In this document: in pieces, positions 23,523 through 34,045 of the stretch
How positions within the stretch are numbered: the first letter of the stretch is position 1
Layout of the letters: every line of letters starts with the position of its first letter
Assembly: GCA_050115495.1 (NCBI GenBank)
Contig: JASFQK010000010.1
Location: 1 to 64,000, forward strand
Reading direction: 5' to 3'
Origin: Phycisphaerae bacterium
GTDB taxonomy: Bacteria; Planctomycetota; Phycisphaerae; UBA1845; Fen-1342
Length of the DNA: 64,000 nucleotides
Made by a program: the position numbers and the translations under genes
Notes under the pieces: model-generated
What the model was told of the DNA's origin: nothing
The model's database searches: none
What the model saw: the letters and a program-made list of their open reading frames with translations, nothing else

Positions 23523-24278
23523 ATGGCAGAGAAGCACTACACATTGGCGCAGTTCCCGCCTTGGGGTCTGTACTTCGCGGAAGGGCTGCTCGACAACAAA
23601 CGTGTCGTCCCCGAGAGGCCGGGGCCCCATCCCTGCGTGGTGTGCGGACGGGCTGCGAGCGCATTGAGGTTTGGGCCGCCGCACTACGTCGAACTCGTGG
23701 ACGTCAAGCGCTTCGGGGATTACCTCTACGTCTACGGACAAACTGACTTCGGTATCTCTGAACGATTCTTGGGTATTTGCGAGAAGGAGGCGGTGCGTGG
23801 TATCGAAGTGGTCTATCCACCAATCGTGGTTACGCGCGTGGGTCGGCGACACCGCGAGGGCCGGGTCCCGCCCGTCTATCACATGGTCGAGATCGCCCGC
23901 GAGGGGGCCGACCTGGACGATGAAGCCTCGGGTGTTGTGCGGACGAAGATCCTGTGCCCGCGATGTCGCTTCGGCGGAGTTGACGCATATCAGCGCATCG
24001 TGCTGAAGCCGGAAAGCGACCGCGGTCTGGACATCTTCTGCGTGCTTGGCCTGCCAGGCGATTTCATCGTGTCGGAGAAGTTCGTCGACATGTGTGTCCG
24101 CCATCAGATCAGCAACACGTACTTCACGCCCTGCGAGGTAGCCACGTGGGACGCGTATGCCAAGATTGAGCAGCCCCCGGACCCGCCGGGTGTGGTGATC
24201 CCTGTTAATCCTCGGAGCGCTCGGGCGCAGGCGCGCGCTGAGGGGAGAACGGCGGTTGATCGGCGCCGGAAGGGGTAG
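23523..24278 (+). CDS. Double-CXXC(G) protein, resembling SitI6/Imm11-like immunity proteins (paralog 2)
   Basis: CVVCG and CPRC; LDIFCVLGLPGDFIVSEKFVDMC...ISNTYF; clear paralog of 22581-23309. Confidence 0.7.
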   Translation: MAEKHYTLAQFPPWGLYFAEGLLDNKRVVPERPGPHPCVVCGRAASALRFGPPHYVELVDVKRFGDYLYVYGQTDFGISERFLGICEKEAVRGIEVVYPPIVVTRVGRRHREGRVPPVYHMVEIAREGADLDDEASGVVRTKILCPRCRFGGVDAYQRIVLKPESDRGLDIFCVLGLPGDFIVSEKFVDMCVRHQISNTYFTPCEVATWDAYAKIEQPPDPPGVVIPVNPRSARAQARAEGRTAVDRRRKG

Positions 24279-28469: not shown

Positions 28470-28599
28470 GTAGAGGTCGGACGCCACGTTGGCGTGCGGG
28501 GCGTTTGTTGGTATTCGACGTCGGCCACGGGGGGCCGACGCTACCAGATGACCGACGCAACGTGCGGCCGTCAACACACCGGTTACAAACCGGTGCTAC
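28470..28599. repeat. Cluster of GTAG-type REP-like palindromes
   Basis: Minus strand GTAG-CGTCGGCC-CCCCGT-GGCCGACG (28519-28544) and GTAG-CACCGGT-TTGTA-ACCGGTG (28577-28599); plus strand GTAG at 28470 followed by an ACGCCA/TGGCGT hairpin. Confidence 0.65.
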
Positions 28600-28634: not shown

Positions 28635-30020
28635 CTAGCGCTTGATTGAGCGGATGAACTCCTGCACCTCGGGGATCTGGCCCTGGTAGATGAGGTAGCC
28701 GTTGTAGGGCTCACGCAGCGTGATCTCGTCGCTGACGGGGGTGAGCATGATGCGGCGGACCTCGTCGCGGTCGTCGGACTGGCCGAGCGCCCAGCAGAGC
28801 TTCATGTAGGCGACCTCGGGCAGCATGTTCGCCGCCGGGACGACGCCGAGTTCCATGATCTCGCGGCCCGTCTCGTACACGTACATCTGCACGTAGCCCC
28901 AGAGCGTCTGCACCGTCATGTACATGTGCACGCCGGCGGCGGTCGCTCGGGCCAGGGCGTCGTACAGCGGCTTGTTCACGTGGCCGAGACCCGTGCCGGC
29001 GATGATGATGCCGCGATAGCCCTTCTCGACGATCGCGTCGACGATGTCGGGGTTCATGTTCGGGTAGTAGTAGAGGATGGTCACCTTCTCTTCGAACGCC
29101 GTGTTGATGGTGACCTCGCGGTCCGTTCGTCGATGACGGTAGTCGGGCCGTAGCGGCGTGATCTTGCGCGGGTCGACCGTGGCCAGCGGCACGTCGCCGA
29201 TCGTGCGGAAGGTCGAGCGATAGCTGGAGTGCATCTTGCGGACGCGCGTGCCGCGGTGCAGCAGGCCGTACTCGTCCGACGTCGGGCCGAACATGCAGAC
29301 CATCACCTCGGCGAGGTCGCTCTCGGCGGCGGCCTTCACGGCGTTGATGAGATTGAGGGCAGCGTCGGATGAGGGGCGGTCGCTCGAACGCTGCGAGCCG
29401 ACCATGACGATGGGCACCGGCGGGTTCTGCACCATGAAGGTGAGGATGGCCGCGGTGTGGTGCATCGTGTCGGTGCCGTGGCCGACCACGACACCGTCGA
29501 CGCCGTTGGCGATCTCCTCACCGATGCGCTGGGCCAGCTTGATGTACTGCTCGGGGCCCATGTTCTCGCTGAAGACGCCGTAGAGCTTCTCGGTGCGCAG
29601 GTTGCAGATGTCGGCCAGCTCGGGCACGGAGCCGTAGAGCTCGCCGGGGGAGAAGGCGGGAATGACGGCGCCGGTGCGGTAGTCGAGGCGGCTGGCGATG
29701 GTGCCGCCGGTACCGAAGAGGACGATGTTCGGCTTGCGCTCGTCGAAGGGGAATTCCTTCTCGGGGATCTTGTAGTGGGCCTCGCGGCGGCCGCGCTCGT
29801 GGATCTTGGTGATGGTGTCCGCGGCGATGCCGATGTTGTAGCCGCTGATCAGCTTGATGACGATGTGCTTGTCATCGGCCGTTTCGGAGCGGGGGAGGAT
29901 GATGCCGGCGAACTGACCGCCGGTGGATTCGATCTCGACGTCGCTCCACACGCCGACGTTGAACTTCTTCAGCGTGGCGGCGCCGGGGCCGCGGTAGCCT
30001 TTCAGGTCGTTGTTACTCAT
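28635..30020 (-). CDS. gatD: Glu-tRNA(Gln) amidotransferase subunit D (archaeal type)
   Basis: GatD N-domain (GIILPRSE..DDKHIVIKLISGYNIGI) plus asparaginase domain with GTGGTIASRLDYRTGAV, HGTDT, SQRSSDRPSSDA, RKMHSS, GTGLGH, VYETGR, MLPEVAYMKL. Confidence 0.95.
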   Translation of the reverse strand: MSNNDLKGYRGPGAATLKKFNVGVWSDVEIESTGGQFAGIILPRSETADDKHIVIKLISGYNIGIAADTITKIHERGRREAHYKIPEKEFPFDERKPNIVLFGTGGTIASRLDYRTGAVIPAFSPGELYGSVPELADICNLRTEKLYGVFSENMGPEQYIKLAQRIGEEIANGVDGVVVGHGTDTMHHTAAILTFMVQNPPVPIVMVGSQRSSDRPSSDAALNLINAVKAAAESDLAEVMVCMFGPTSDEYGLLHRGTRVRKMHSSYRSTFRTIGDVPLATVDPRKITPLRPDYRHRRTDREVTINTAFEEKVTILYYYPNMNPDIVDAIVEKGYRGIIIAGTGLGHVNKPLYDALARATAAGVHMYMTVQTLWGYVQMYVYETGREIMELGVVPAANMLPEVAYMKLCWALGQSDDRDEVRRIMLTPVSDEITLREPYNGYLIYQGQIPEVQEFIRSIKR

Positions 30021-31996
30021 CGTTTCGCGGTTTCCTTGCGAATCTGGTCGGAGGGGACGTCGAGCTCGGCCCGGAGCAGGCTGGCCAGGCGCGTGCCGGC
30101 GAAGCGGCCGACGTAGGCGGTCATAAGCTCACCCATGAGATAGCGGTACTTCTTGCCGCGGTTGGCGAAGCGCTCGTCGCCGCGCTTGGCGATCAGGGCG
30201 CTCATGCTGTCGCGCACTTCCTGCTCGGCGGCGGGTTGTATGTTCAGGGCGGCCAGGGCGGTCGTGACGCGCTCGTCGCCGTTGCCGTTGGGCGGCTCGT
30301 GCTGAAGGAGGTAGAGCAGAAGCTCGGCGATGCCCTCGCGGGCCAGCTTGCCGCCGGCGTGGGCCCGGAAGACGGCGAAGATCTCGTCATCCGTCAGGCG
30401 GTCGGGGTTGAGCCCCTGGCGGCGGTAGGCCTTCAACTGGCGGCAGAGCGTGACCGCCGCCAGCGTCGGGGCGATCTTCAACTCGTCGACCAGGCGGCCG
30501 AAGAGCGTCGTGCGGTCGGAGAGGGCCAGCGGGACGATGGTGTCCTCGGGGATGCCCAAGTCGCGGTACTGCGCCTCGCGCTCCCAGATGTACACGGGCA
30601 GGTCGGTCCGGGTGCGCTCGACGCGGGCGGGCTCGATGGCCAGCGGGGGCAGGTCGGTGTCGGGGTACATGCGCTCGGCACCGGGCAGGACGCGCTCGAA
30701 GCCGGTGGTACCGTCCTGGAGGACCTGGCGGGTATCGTTGGGCACGCCCTGCGTGGCCTCGCGGGCGCGGATGATGATCTCGTCGCAGGCGGTCGTCGTG
30801 TCGCGCTCGTCGCCCCAGACGAGGAGCAGGGCATCGTGCTCGTCGGCCCGGGTGCGGCGGCGGAGAGCCTTCCAGTCGCGGGCGGCGAGGGCCTCGGTGG
30901 CTGTGTCGGAGTGCACGAGGTTGGGCAGTCGCGTCAGGCAGGCGATGACCCGCACGCGGTCGGAGAACTCCTTCGCGAAGGTGGTGTGCTCCTGCGTGTC
31001 GGTGTTGAGGATGCCGGCGAAGCCCTTGAGCACGACGCACTTGACCCTCAGGCCGTCGGCCAGGGCGTTGCGGATCGGCTCGTAATGGACCTTGGTCAGC
31101 ATGCCGGTGACGTCGTGCGTGCTGTGGGCGAAGCTCTCCGGCGTGACGCCGCGGTCCTTCAGCGTTTCGCGAATCTGGAGGAGCGACCACTGCCGGCGGG
31201 CCTCGTTGTAGACCAGGCGCGGGATGCGCCAGATCTGGGGCACGCCCTTGATCTCGACGCGCGTGCCGCCACGGATGCTGACGTTGACGTCCTCGCGGGC
31301 GGCGCCGTAGCCGGTGCGGACCTTGTGCGTGCTGCGGCAGATCTTGCGGATGATCTGGCAGACGTCGGCGGTCTCCTGCGGCGTGTGCATGTCGGGCTCG
31401 GTGACGGCCTCGATCAGCGGCATGCCCAGCCGGTCGGTGAGCAGGACGCGGTCGTGGCCGCTGTCGGAGACCTCACGGCAGGAATCCTCCTCGATGGAGA
31501 GCTGCCGCATGCGGATCCGCCGGCCGGCGTAGGGCAACCAGCCGCCGACGCCGACGATCCCGGTGCGCTGAAAACCGGTGGGGATCGAGCCGTCGAGATA
31601 TTGTTTGCGGGCGATGTGCAGCTCACTGACGATATTCATATGCAGGAGCAGGCAGACTTCGAGCGTGATGTCGAGGGCCTCGTCGTCGATGAAGAACGGC
31701 GGGGTGTCGTCAAACTCGTAGGTGCAGACCGTGCTGTGATGGATGCGGTAATAGATGTTCTTCCGGGTCTTTTTCTCCATCAAGGCGGTGCCGTCGTACT
31801 CGCCGAGCTCGGAGAGCGTGGGCCGCATGTGACGGAGAATCTCGGCGTCGTACTCGCCGCTGTAGCGCCCGGCGGGGCAGCGGCAGAAGAGCTTGGTGCG
31901 CGTGAGAAGCTGTTGATGAACCTCCAGGCCGGACATCAGGCCGATATTGGCATAGTCCTCGGCGGTCATCTCCTCGAACGGCTTGAACGACGTCAT
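30017..31996 (-). CDS. gatE: Glu-tRNA(Gln) amidotransferase subunit E (archaeal type)
   Basis: GLEVHQQL..KLFCRCP, RPTLSELGEYD, DGSIPTGFQRT, EEDSCR, DRLGMPLIE, REDVNVSIRGGTRVEIKGV, AspRS-like GAD insertion, PGAERMYPDTDLPP; RBS AGGAGA; ATGA overlap with gatD. Confidence 0.95.
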   Translation of the reverse strand: MTSFKPFEEMTAEDYANIGLMSGLEVHQQLLTRTKLFCRCPAGRYSGEYDAEILRHMRPTLSELGEYDGTALMEKKTRKNIYYRIHHSTVCTYEFDDTPPFFIDDEALDITLEVCLLLHMNIVSELHIARKQYLDGSIPTGFQRTGIVGVGGWLPYAGRRIRMRQLSIEEDSCREVSDSGHDRVLLTDRLGMPLIEAVTEPDMHTPQETADVCQIIRKICRSTHKVRTGYGAAREDVNVSIRGGTRVEIKGVPQIWRIPRLVYNEARRQWSLLQIRETLKDRGVTPESFAHSTHDVTGMLTKVHYEPIRNALADGLRVKCVVLKGFAGILNTDTQEHTTFAKEFSDRVRVIACLTRLPNLVHSDTATEALAARDWKALRRRTRADEHDALLLVWGDERDTTTACDEIIIRAREATQGVPNDTRQVLQDGTTGFERVLPGAERMYPDTDLPPLAIEPARVERTRTDLPVYIWEREAQYRDLGIPEDTIVPLALSDRTTLFGRLVDELKIAPTLAAVTLCRQLKAYRRQGLNPDRLTDDEIFAVFRAHAGGKLAREGIAELLLYLLQHEPPNGNGDERVTTALAALNIQPAAEQEVRDSMSALIAKRGDERFANRGKKYRYLMGELMTAYVGRFAGTRLASLLRAELDVPSDQIRKETAKR

Positions 31997-32143
31997 AAGC
32001 GGCACTCTCCTGCTTCCGCGGACTTCGAGCCCGGTATCTTAACGCGGCGCGGCCAAACACCCAAACGGCCCGCCGGCGGTCGGCGAATCCCCAGCGGCCG
32101 GCCGGGCGGTTACAATGCGGCCCGGTGCAAAAGGAGGTGCCGG

Positions 32144-32914
32144 GTGCGGATTGTGTGTGAACCCAGCGTGTACCTGGTGGGCCGGCAGACGGTGGACGCC
32201 GCGGCCGTGGCCCGTTTCCTGGACGAACACGGCCTGTCCTGGTCGACGGATACCGAGGTCGGGGCCGAGACGCTCTGCGAGATGGCCGGCCGGGTCTGCT
32301 ACATGTCCTTCGGCCAGGGCCGCAAGACCAACGCCGAGTACCTGGGCAATATCATCGATTCGGAGCACGGCTCGGTCCTGGAGCATGCCGCCTGGAACGT
32401 GCTGATCACCGGCGTGTCGCGATCGTTCACGCACGAACTGGTGCGGCACCGGGCCGGGTTCGGCTATTCACAGCTCTCGCAGCGGTACGTGGACGAGAGC
32501 ACGGCCGATTTCATCGAGCCGGACTGCATCGCCGAGGACCCGGAACTGCACACCGTTTGGCAGGAGGCGATCGAGCAGGCCCATGCGGCGTACGTGCGGC
32601 TGGTCGCCGGCTTGCAGCGGCGGTTCGCGGATGAGCCGTCGGGGACGATGCGGCGGAAGATGGCCCGGCAGGCGGCGCGGAGCGTGCTGCCTAACGCCAC
32701 GGAGACGAAGATCTTCGTGACGGGGAACGGGCGGGCTTGGCGCCATTTCATCGAGATGCGGGCCAGCGAGCACGCCGAGGTGGAGATCCGCAAGGTGGCC
32801 CTGAAGATCCTGCGGCTACTCCAGGTGGAGGCGCCGCACGTGTTCGGCGATTACGAGGTTATCAGACTGGACAGCGGGGTGGAGGTGGCCCGCACCGGGC
32901 ATCGGAAGGTTTGA
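32144..32914 (+). CDS. thyX: FAD-dependent thymidylate synthase
   Basis: AGRVCYMS, HGSVLEH, RSFTHELVRHRAGFGYSQLSQRYV, ARSVLPNATET, HAEVEIR; RBS AGGAGG and TACAAT upstream. Confidence 0.97.
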   Translation: MRIVCEPSVYLVGRQTVDAAAVARFLDEHGLSWSTDTEVGAETLCEMAGRVCYMSFGQGRKTNAEYLGNIIDSEHGSVLEHAAWNVLITGVSRSFTHELVRHRAGFGYSQLSQRYVDESTADFIEPDCIAEDPELHTVWQEAIEQAHAAYVRLVAGLQRRFADEPSGTMRRKMARQAARSVLPNATETKIFVTGNGRAWRHFIEMRASEHAEVEIRKVALKILRLLQVEAPHVFGDYEVIRLDSGVEVARTGHRKV

Positions 32915-32947
32915 GCCGGCCGGCTGAAGGAGCAGCTTGTGAGGACG

Positions 32948-34045
32948 ATGCGGAGGTTCCCGGGCCGGTGGCTGGCGCTGCTGGTCGTGGTCGGCGGGGC
33001 GGCGCTGGCGCTGGCCGAGCTGGCCGACGTGTACCTGCGCAATGGCCTGCGCCTGCGCGGGGATGTGGAGATGACCGAGGAAGAGGTCATCATCCGCACA
33101 GAGTTGGGCGAGTTGCGCTATCCGCGGGACATGGTCGAACGGGTTGTGCCGGCGACGTCCAGCCAGCCGGCCCCGGAGACGCAGCCGGCGACGACGCAGC
33201 CCACCGAGCTAGCCGAGCCGGCCGAGCCCACGGAAGAGACCGGGCGAGCCGCGCCGCCGATGCTCTCGGCCCTGGACATCCAGCGGCTGAAGCTGTCTGA
33301 GCTGCGCGTCGACGGCGACCCGGAGAAGGTGCGCGTGCGCTTCGCCGGCCGGAACCAGCGCGAGTTGCCAGCCGAAGTGCTGACCGAGCTGACGACGCGG
33401 CCGAACTACCGGGATGTGTGGGAGGAGACCCTGTTGAGAGGCACGCCGCAGGAGAAGCTCCAGCTCATCGCCGCCACGACCGGCCTGAAGTACGTGGACC
33501 GCATCACGATCAACAACGACCCGGAGGTGTTCGCGGCATTTCGCAGCGGCGTGTTGCCGACGGTCGTGAAGTCGTGTGCCCGGCGGGGTTGCCACTCGGG
33601 CGACGATGCGGTGGACTTCCGGTTTCCGAAGGGGCCGACGACGAGCGAGGCGTACGCGTACACGACGTTCGCCCTGCTGGAACGGATGGAGACGAAGCAG
33701 GGGGTGATGATCAACCGCGACAATCCGGAGGGTGGCGTGCTGGATGGCAGCGTGCTACTCAGCTACCTGCTGCCACAGCGGGACAACCCGCAGGCCCATC
33801 CGCCGGTGCCGGGCACGCGGCAGTTCAAGCCGGGGCTGCGCGGGCGCGATAACGTGCTGTACGAGCGGATCCGCGACTGGATCAACCTGTTGCGTACGCC
33901 GCACCCGAAGTACGAGCTCGAGTACGAATTCCCGGCGGACCTGCCGGGGCTGACGCTGCACGAGGGCGAGGAGGAAGCGCCCGCGCCGGCGACGGAGCCG
34001 CGGCCGGCAGGGCCGTTCGACAAGCCGCCGGCGCCGCAGCCGTAG
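32948..34045 (+). CDS. Hypothetical exported protein with CX4CH motif
   Basis: Signal peptide; DVYLRNG..LRG N-terminal motif; ATTQP linker; SCARRGCHSG. Confidence 0.8.
   Translation: MRRFPGRWLALLVVVGGAALALAELADVYLRNGLRLRGDVEMTEEEVIIRTELGELRYPRDMVERVVPATSSQPAPETQPATTQPTELAEPAEPTEETGRAAPPMLSALDIQRLKLSELRVDGDPEKVRVRFAGRNQRELPAEVLTELTTRPNYRDVWEETLLRGTPQEKLQLIAATTGLKYVDRITINNDPEVFAAFRSGVLPTVVKSCARRGCHSGDDAVDFRFPKGPTTSEAYAYTTFALLERMETKQGVMINRDNPEGGVLDGSVLLSYLLPQRDNPQAHPPVPGTRQFKPGLRGRDNVLYERIRDWINLLRTPHPKYELEYEFPADLPGLTLHEGEEEAPAPATEPRPAGPFDKPPAPQP

Follow-up and report, generated by a model that had tools for sequence, protein, structure and literature searches.

A bacterial GatDE amidotransferase operon in a Phycisphaerae-type genome and its relationship to archaeal GatDE

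The gatE-gatD operon and its described counterparts

The closest described counterparts of the system analyzed here are the archaeal GatDE enzymes, represented by those of M. thermautotrophicus (Protein Data Bank, PDB, 2D6F) and P. abyssi (1ZQ1). GatDE "is an archaeal signature protein" according to the available text of PMC2330236, it "occurs exclusively in archaea" according to that of PMC2811023, and a review also treats it as restricted to archaea (PMC9499178). The bacterial counterpart, GatCAB, differs in that the glutaminase is the amidase GatA and a third subunit, GatC, is present, while GatDE uses the asparaginase-type GatD and has no GatC. The subject of this work is a gatE-gatD operon found in the first 64,000 nucleotides of contig JASFQK010000010.1 from a Phycisphaerae bacterium; this whole stretch is referred to as the window. 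The operon is an intact, resident GatDE in a Phycisphaerae-type genome. Its host contig is of planctomycete type and its nearest relatives are bacterial, and the statement that GatDE is confined to archaea does not hold for it.

The gatE gene (30017..31996, minus strand) codes for the tRNA-dependent kinase/amidotransferase subunit of 659 amino acids, and gatD (28635..30020, minus strand) for the glutaminase/asparaginase subunit of 461 amino acids. The original prediction described two open reading frames (ORFs) overlapping at ATGA, and both were read in the sequence: gatE ends with '...AAA CGA TGA' and gatD starts with 'ATG AGT AAC', which places the start of gatD over the stop of gatE in a 4-base overlap. 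Both ORFs are free of stops and frameshifts. An in-frame GTG at 32005 is an alternative start that would extend gatE to 30017..32005 (662 amino acids). Nonetheless, the ATG at 31996 is likely the true start because a Shine-Dalgarno-like AGGAGA (32006..32011, minus strand, direct reading) is located nine bases upstream, and a database copy of the protein (P0003) also has 659 amino acids. No sigma-70-like promoter was found for the operon and no convincing terminator was found on the gene strand.

The amino acid sequences were compared with curated family models and with the archaeal structures. GatE (P0001) scored 526.3 bits against NF003107 (cut-off 456) and 476.2 bits against TIGR00134 (cut-off 319.55), with matches that span model positions 3-625/630. 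All GatB models were far below their cut-offs, the best one reaching 138 of the 338 bits required. In the Pfam analysis, the GatB_N domain (residues 25-462) is split by the AspRS-like GAD insertion predicted for this protein (PF02938, residues 311-406, 31.6 bits, cut-off 23.4), a domain that GatB lacks. The YqeY-like tail (GatB_Yqey) gave a weak match of 19.5 bits, below the cut-off of 27. The tRNA-facing domains, i.e., the cradle, the AspRS-like insertion, the helical domain and the tail, are full length, and residues 17-648 matched the GatE chains of M. thermautotrophicus (2d6f_C, E 5e-98) and P. abyssi (1zq1_C, E 8e-95).

Mutation of the Mg-binding residues His15, Glu157 and Glu184 of M. 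thermautotrophicus GatE kills the enzyme, as described in the available text of PMC2330236. These residues align with H30, E172/E173 and E199 of the window GatE, and H30, E172 and E199 are invariant in alignment A1. In a comparison of 129 bacterial with 77 archaeal-like GatE rows, H30, E172/E173, E199 and R237/D239/N241/S243 were kept in at least 98% of the rows of both sets. The last four belong to the sequence REDVNVS (residues 237-243), to which the original prediction had drawn attention. The motif is present, but it is not a signature of this operon: its E is a common variant found in 44/129 bacterial rows and 3/77 archaeal-like rows, while 81 bacterial rows have Q.

GatD (P0002) scored 507.4 bits against NF003217 (cut-off 310) and 500.9 bits against TIGR02153 (cut-off 324). 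The GatD-specific domain GatD_N (PF18195, residues 26-73, 54.3 bits) is followed by the N and C asparaginase domains of Pfam, the fusion of a GatD N-domain to a type I asparaginase that had been noticed from the sequence. The protein matched 1zq1_A (E 2e-117) and 2d6f_A (E 9e-116), and its GTGGTIAS, HGTDTM and RKMH (within VRKMH) sequences are identical to those of both structures in the alignment. An asparaginase catalytic Thr and a Thr-Lys-Asp triad are described in the available text of PMC2330236; by our own reading, the triad would map onto these three motifs. The comparison of GatD and GatE models with GatB and asparaginase models, which had been suggested as a check, identified the pair as true GatE and GatD.

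The operon shares with archaeal GatDE the two subunits, the domain order, the GatD N-domain and the GAD insertion, as well as the Mg-binding His/Glu/Glu, the R-x-D-x-N-x-S sequence, the asparaginase Thr and the Thr-Asp-Lys motifs. The differences are the low identity of the window GatE to archaeal-like representatives (~30-37%), the bacterial host, the tRNA-facing elements and the set of partners. The partner tRNA-Gln has A1-U72 in archaea and U1-A72 in the host of the operon, the partner GluRS is of bacterial rather than archaeal type, and GatDE coexists with GlnRS, which no archaeon encodes (PMC9499178). By analogy, the host GatDE would be expected to carry out on U1-A72 tRNAs the same reaction as bacterial GatCAB, of which the host genome has a separate complete set. 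GatE and GatB share the cradle domain, on which the 138-bit GatB match is based. They differ in that GatB has a 3-10 turn (KMEE in S. aureus) where GatE has a short loop, and in that GatE has no Lys-rich tail motif.

Distribution and phylogeny of bacterial GatE

GatE was searched for at E <= 1e-40 in 301 sampled genomes of the phylum. Matches were found in 29 of them, including the host genome, and 26 were over the curated cut-off. The gene was present in 6/6 other genomes of the genus, 13/24 of the family and 4/16 others of the order, and it was found in none of the 16 genomes sampled from other orders of the same class. Among 5.8 billion proteins searched, more than 120 were relatives with 63-74% identity, and those with names were annotated as 'Glu-tRNA(Gln) amidotransferase subunit GatE' from Phycisphaerae/Planctomycetota metagenome-assembled genomes (MAGs) by the NCBI Prokaryotic Genome Annotation Pipeline (PGAP) and JGI.

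When one genome per prokaryote species was scanned with a profile, at least 600 GatE hits were obtained, of which the best 80 loci were compared. None of these 80 carried an archaeal title, all being bacterial or unassigned. They include Phycisphaerae, Bacteroidota/Bacteroidales, Ignavibacteriota, Rhodothermota, Aminicenantes, Krumholzibacteria, Fermentibacteria, Cloacimonadota, Zixibacteria, Omnitrophota, Myxococcota and Lentisphaeria, and one isolate, Perlabentimonas gracilis M08_MB. In 61 of the same 80 loci gatD is located 3' of gatE on the same strand, 18 loci had no gatD in the fetched stretch, and one was arranged otherwise. The operon is therefore an ordinary member of a group of database-annotated bacterial GatE/GatD proteins, with the same gene order and no notable difference. 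The original prediction had anticipated such annotations, and it knew of no characterized case. A literature search, with subscription journals outside its scope, found no title or abstract on bacterial GatDE, including that of Planctomycetes/Phycisphaerae, and no characterized member.

Phylogenetic trees were built from 150 representatives at 50% identity and the GatE ORFs of related loci (designated by L-numbers), with GatB of this phylum as the outgroup. Locus ORFs of less than 600 amino acids, representatives outside the range of 590-720 amino acids and the duplicate loci L018 and L021 were left out. The outgroup row L153_GatB, which had a FastTree branch of 3.70, proved to be a wrong ORF and was dropped. 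FastTree was run on 212 rows, and IQ-TREE (quick search, LG+C20 with posterior mean site frequencies, PMSF) on 75 rows and 631 columns. In the 75-row tree, all 36 bacterial GatE rows formed one clade with a stem length of 0.46 and a Shimodaira-Hasegawa-like approximate likelihood ratio test (SH-aLRT) value of 100, and FastTree agreed. The sister of the bacterial clade was P0157 (SH-aLRT 99), whose 90% cluster includes a protein from a MAG that bears the name Candidatus Heimdallarchaeota. The next rows outward were P0201 (Thorarchaeota), P0231 (Odinarchaeota) and others (SH-aLRT 96-98). FastTree gave the same sister and the same next rows.

When the tree was rooted with GatB, the bacterial clade was nested within the archaeal tree, and a 40-row tree gave the same picture. 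The best tree has this nesting, yet its root is insecure and the nesting is not proven: in an approximately unbiased (AU) test with 40 rows, the tree that holds the 21 archaeal-like rows together had a log-likelihood 7.09 lower and was not rejected (p-AU 0.265). Furthermore, only 7 of 20 representatives looked up carry an organism name, and membership of the 'archaeal' set therefore depends in part on tree position. The window GatE groups with other Phycisphaerae, including the complete chromosome CP070718.1 (71% identity), and this group adjoins one of Bacteroidota/Ignavibacteriota/Rhodothermota (SH-aLRT 87). Further genomes of the phylum are located elsewhere in the bacterial clade, which points to transfers among bacteria. 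The transfer from archaea to bacteria proposed in the original prediction agrees with the best tree and is unproven at the p-AU given above, while a transfer into this particular lineage does not fit a single clade that extends over many phyla.

The elements that face the tRNA differ between the bacterial and archaeal-like rows. GatE has a conserved, positively charged short loop at the place of the GatB 3-10 turn that reads U1-A72 (PMC2811023). This first-pair loop reads V-K-R-G-L-G-T-I-R-Q-D in the archaeal-like rows, with R at position 231 in 74/77 and I at position 236 in 71/77. The bacterial rows read V-R-T-G-x-G-A-x-R-Q-D, with R230 in 124/129, T (74) or R (46) at position 231 and A235 in 97. 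The PxTD motif is RMYPETD in archaeal-like rows (E in 93%) and RMYPDTD in bacterial rows (D in 99%), and the EED motif is EEDAA in the former and EEDSC (C in 96%) in the latter. The GXXAXGX motif in the tail of archaeal GatE has been implicated in the rejection of Asp-tRNA(Asn) (PMC2811023). It is conserved in part in the archaeal-like rows (G 64%, A 67%) and has no counterpart in the bacterial clade, where the 129 rows show no G/A conservation; the window GatE has ..NRGKKYRYLMG.. where M. thermautotrophicus has ..ERGMGAMGPLMG...

Host tRNAs, partner enzymes and the likely role of GatDE

The host genome (G000) is a draft of 85 contigs (C1, C2 and so on). It has GlnRS (C20:4087-5673, 763.2 bits), and GatB (C18, 459 bits), GatA (C25, 594.1 bits) and the adjoining GatC (C25, 89.3 bits), all above their cut-offs. 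AsnRS (C2, 453.7 bits) and the asparagine synthetase AsnB (C14, 478.7 bits) are also present, together with one copy each of a bacterial-type GluRS (C1, 464.3 bits) and a bacterial-type AspRS (C12, 823.6 bits with NF001750). No archaeal-type AspRS2 was found in the host genome. GatDE is then not the sole route to Gln-tRNA(Gln) in this host and, with GlnRS, GatCAB, AsnRS and AsnB all present, it is surplus on paper; the host is a clean case of full redundancy. The original prediction had held that a complete GlnRS route, combined with inactivity on the host tRNA-Gln, would speak against a translational role. The scan for glnS, gatCAB and asnS that it proposed found all of these genes, which supplies the first half of that argument where an essential role is concerned. 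A paralogue of the AsnRS catalytic core (448 amino acids, C38; L158:751-2097, minus strand) was also observed. Its match is limited to model positions 120-399, the score of 113 bits falls far short of the cut-off, and the anticodon-binding part is missing.

Two credible tRNA-Gln genes were identified in the host with aragorn, and both have U1-A72 and G73. The tRNA-Gln(CUG) gene (C20:3682-3756) is 330 bases from glnS and its acceptor stem continues with G2-C71 and G3-C70, while tRNA-Gln(UUG) (C36:10649-10720) has A2-U71 and C3-G70. The stems of the two isoacceptors are quite different, and the two tRNAs might be served by different routes. The A2-U71, C3-G70 stem was found in most of the 24 UUG rows from other GatE-positive genomes. 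Among the 28 other GatE-positive genomes of the phylum, tRNA-Gln was found in 23, giving 27 rows with U-A in 25 and A1-U72 in none. The remaining two rows, from G047, read U-G through an extra 5' base from aragorn and become U1-A72 when shifted by one. Since the host tRNA-Gln genes have U1-A72, the archaeal reading of A1-U72 cannot apply unchanged, and the archaeal Gln-tRNA route first proposed for this operon needs correction on this point.

The host tRNA-Asn(GUU) also has U1-A72 and G73. The host tRNA-Glu has G1-C72 and a D-loop of nine bases, compared with seven in tRNA-Gln(UUG), and the first pair and the D-loop are described in the available text of PMC2330236 as the features that let amidotransferases tell tRNA-Gln from tRNA-Glu. 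Four further aragorn predictions, 86-97 bases long (Gln on C3, Glu on C13 and C46, and Asn-AUU on C46), were ignored because their length suggests false positives. Two calls for tRNA-SeC(UCA) were also obtained from the host genome.

The single GluRS of the host has Gly427 at the site of Arg358 of the discriminating GluRS (D-GluRS) of T. thermophilus; the E. coli and 5h4v GluRS enzymes also have Arg. The substitution R358Q makes the T. thermophilus enzyme non-discriminating, according to the available text of PMC2978374, and from the aligned residue the host GluRS is probably non-discriminating as well.

The reading that we favor, at somewhat better than even chances, is that the operon, which has been kept throughout the genus, specifies a tRNA-dependent amidotransferase that belongs to the bacterial GatDE clade, is competent in catalysis and has an accessory role on Glu-tRNA(Gln) beside GatCAB and GlnRS. 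By analogy with the archaeal enzyme, GatE would bind the mischarged aminoacyl-tRNA and phosphorylate the side-chain carboxyl with ATP, GatD would free ammonia from Asn or Gln, and the ammonia would travel through a tunnel to GatE and amidate the intermediate. The likeliest substrate would be Glu-tRNA(Gln) of the U1-A72 type, made by the single bacterial-type GluRS that has no discriminating Arg, and recognition would have been re-tuned to the bacterial tRNA. GatDE could then provide an accessory, second path to Gln-tRNA(Gln), or serve in the clean-up of Glu-tRNA(Gln), beside GatCAB and GlnRS and not as the sole route.

Several findings weigh against this role. The gene content of the host, with GlnRS, GatC/A/B, AsnRS and AsnB, shows no need for GatDE. 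GlnRS is as common with GatE as without it (14/28 other GatE-positive genomes, 15/29 with the host, and 139/272 GatE-negative genomes, or 51%; 154/301 in all), so GatDE is no stand-in for GlnRS. The P. gracilis isolate (G301) and a Bacteroidales chromosome (G302) have GlnRS and GatDE and no GatB. The tail motif of the archaeal enzyme is not kept, and H. pylori GluRS1 is an exception to the Arg358 rule (PMC3927822).

A broader proposal is more tentative, and we hold it as a possibility with clearly less than even chances. The whole bacterial clade may go back to a single ancient transfer whose donor was an Asgard (Heimdall-like) archaeon, with recognition re-tuned from A1-U72 to U1-A72 through the first-pair loop and the remodelled tail. 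Together with a non-discriminating bacterial-type GluRS, the enzyme would form a second Gln-tRNA route able to run on asparagine, possibly with dual Glu/Asp activity, and it could have been kept for fidelity or for nitrogen-limited growth.

The main rival holds that GatDE is an Asp-tRNA(Asn) or dual Glu/Asp amidotransferase, like bacterial GatCAB, that makes Asn on the tRNA. The U1-A72 and G73 of the host tRNA-Asn(GUU) would permit this, and so would the loss, throughout the bacterial clade, of the tail motif directed against Asp-tRNA(Asn). The distribution of GatB also leans in this direction, since GatB is present in 20/29 GatE-positive genomes (69%; 19/28 without the host) and in 246/272 GatE-negative genomes (90%; 266/301 in all), and all four GatE-positive genomes that are at least 90% complete and have no GatB have GlnRS. 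However, the GatB and GlnRS contrasts ignore kinship among the genomes, and that of GatB is also confounded by genome incompleteness; five GatE-positive genomes have neither GlnRS nor GatB, but they are 73-88% complete. Against the rival, the host already has AsnRS, AsnB and a full GatCAB, its only AspRS is of the bacterial type with no archaeal-type AspRS2 beside it, and AsnRS, searched for in the GatE-positive genomes only, was found in 27 of the other 28.

The recurrent neighbors of gatE also argue against Asp-tRNA(Asn), being glnS and glnA and not asn genes. In four genomes of one planctomycete family (L027-L030), gatE-gatD is located directly behind glnS, which overlaps the gatE start in the three loci with resolvable ORFs (L027, L029 and L030; for example L027:4526-10502, minus strand, and L030:3667-9790, plus strand). 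The glnS product of L027 and L030 has a C-terminal YqeY/GatB-tail fusion (NF011291, ~1092 bits), like the Deinococcus enzyme, and no GatB was found in three of the four genomes. Across 100 related loci, glnS adjoins gatE in 5, and a GlnA or GlnA-like gene does so in 7 that belong to several subclades (L036:4596-6095, plus; L037:8239-9744, minus; L073:158-1591, plus; L093:2544-3968, plus; L034:9569-10999, plus; L019 and L020). With 222 bits, a GlnA-like paralogue beside gatE did not reach the GlnA cut-off of 429. These neighbors point to Gln-tRNA. Apart from gatD, no neighbor was conserved across clades in the 100 loci. LolE-like, Rex and CoA-pyrophosphatase genes were considered as linked genes and discarded, as they reflect synteny within single lineages only. 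No tRNA-Gln gene was found beside gatE in the 100 loci, where the only tRNA genes were one tRNA-Thr and one tRNA-Leu. Taken with the complete host enzyme set, we regard the Asp-tRNA(Asn) role as unlikely.

It is more doubtful still that the pair was recruited outside routine translation, whether for the amidation of another acyl- or aminoacyl-carrier or as a regulated route linked to stress or nitrogen status. In favor of this, many carriers would on paper not need GatDE, its distribution is patchy with many transfers among bacterial phyla, and the tail domain has diverged (GatB_Yqey under the cut-off). Further genomes show that GatDE is found on every GlnRS/GatB background: G303, a Phycisphaerales chromosome and the nearest one to the window, has GatB and no GlnRS, a Krumholzibacteria genome (G305) has both, and a complete chromosome titled metagenome assembly (G304) has no GatB and a GlnRS match (C1:1611797-1613362) with one in-frame TAA. 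Recruitment elsewhere is opposed by the full length of all tRNA-facing domains, by the glnS and glnA neighbors and by the 100 related loci, where no biosynthetic-cluster genes recurred beside gatE. The accessory role on Glu-tRNA(Gln) is the one that we retain.

Integrity of the locus, its surroundings and the meaning of the clade

The operon has the composition of its surroundings. The G+C content at third codon positions (GC3) of gatE and gatD is 0.93-0.94, at the top of the window range (0.75-0.94), and matches that of the flanking genes, in accord with the codon usage noted earlier. The flanks have planctomycete hallmarks, namely DUF1559/N_methyl proteins, PEP-CTERM proteins and Ser/Thr kinases with tetratricopeptide (TPR) repeats. 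No transposase or tRNA gene was found adjoining gatE-gatD, consistent with the lack of a mobile element in the original prediction.

The upstream neighbor is thyX (about 32144..32914, plus strand), coding for an FAD-dependent thymidylate synthase (TIGR02170, 162.7 bits on 32150-32914, cut-off 87.9), whose presence beside the pair had been correctly recognized. It is divergent from gatE across a 147-base spacer and is a neighbor outside the GatDE system. Its start is a GTG at 32144 preceded by AAGGAGG (32131-32137), and its reading frame runs on as a long antisense ORF across gatE. It was not seen as a conserved neighbor in the 100 related loci. An ORF of 368 amino acids (32939-34045, plus strand, GC3 0.91) directly 3' of thyX had no Pfam/NCBIfam match. 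Elsewhere in the window, 23523-24278 (plus strand) gave a weak match to the Imm11 immunity family (26.7 bits), in a region where gene calls are ambiguous.

On the other side, a palindrome that resembles repetitive extragenic palindromic (REP) elements is located at 28514..28545, ~90 bases downstream of the gatD stop, with the core CGTCGGCC-N6-GGCCGACG. The core lies within a consensus of ~30 bases and occurs in 135 copies in the host genome, in both orientations; three of them are on this contig (the one in the window and those at C10 116370 and 119525). Logan contigs of three wetland runs end at this repeat, where the summed depth is 1482, ~70-fold over the flanks. Because contigs break there, it is the original assembly that supports the join downstream of gatD. 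A 10,296-base contig from the probable source run, made with another assembler, covers 29756-34000 with 0 differences and includes the 5' end of gatD, gatE and thyX; it bridges the thyX-gatE junction, a check that had been recommended. Short pieces identical to the operon region were also found in an independent wetland sample.

An artefact, be it archaeal contamination, a chimeric MAG join or a decaying relic, is highly improbable: the draft state of the genome (85 contigs) and the join across the 30-base repeat where independent contigs end would allow it, but they are countered by the 10,296-base contig, by a repeat that is the host genome's own, by GC3 values like those of the flanks and ORFs without stops or frameshifts, and by closest relatives (more than 100 proteins, 63-74% identity) that are Phycisphaerae/Planctomycetota and include the complete chromosome CP070718.1.

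Two identical 151-base contigs within gatD were found in a wetland metatranscriptome library and are a weak hint of gatD transcription, with DNA carry-over possible. Most of gatE was uncovered in RNA run X3, and run X2 gave short pieces only, bridging nothing; these runs are uninformative on absence.

Databases already annotate hundreds of bacterial gatDE genes, and the operon adds one more carrier. The bacterial group as a whole is database-annotated, uncharacterized and ignored in the literature searched, and the interest resides in this whole clade and in what it means for the 'archaea-only' statement. In the available texts of PMC2330236, PMC2811023 and PMC9499178, that statement is the premise of arguments about the amidotransferases of LUCA (the last universal common ancestor) and about the co-evolution of GatDE and archaeal tRNA-Gln. 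A large monophyletic clade of bacterial GatDE, paired with U1-A72 tRNA-Gln and coexisting with GlnRS, changes the premises of those arguments. The bacterial clade is a natural experiment in the switching of tRNA identity elements by an amidotransferase.

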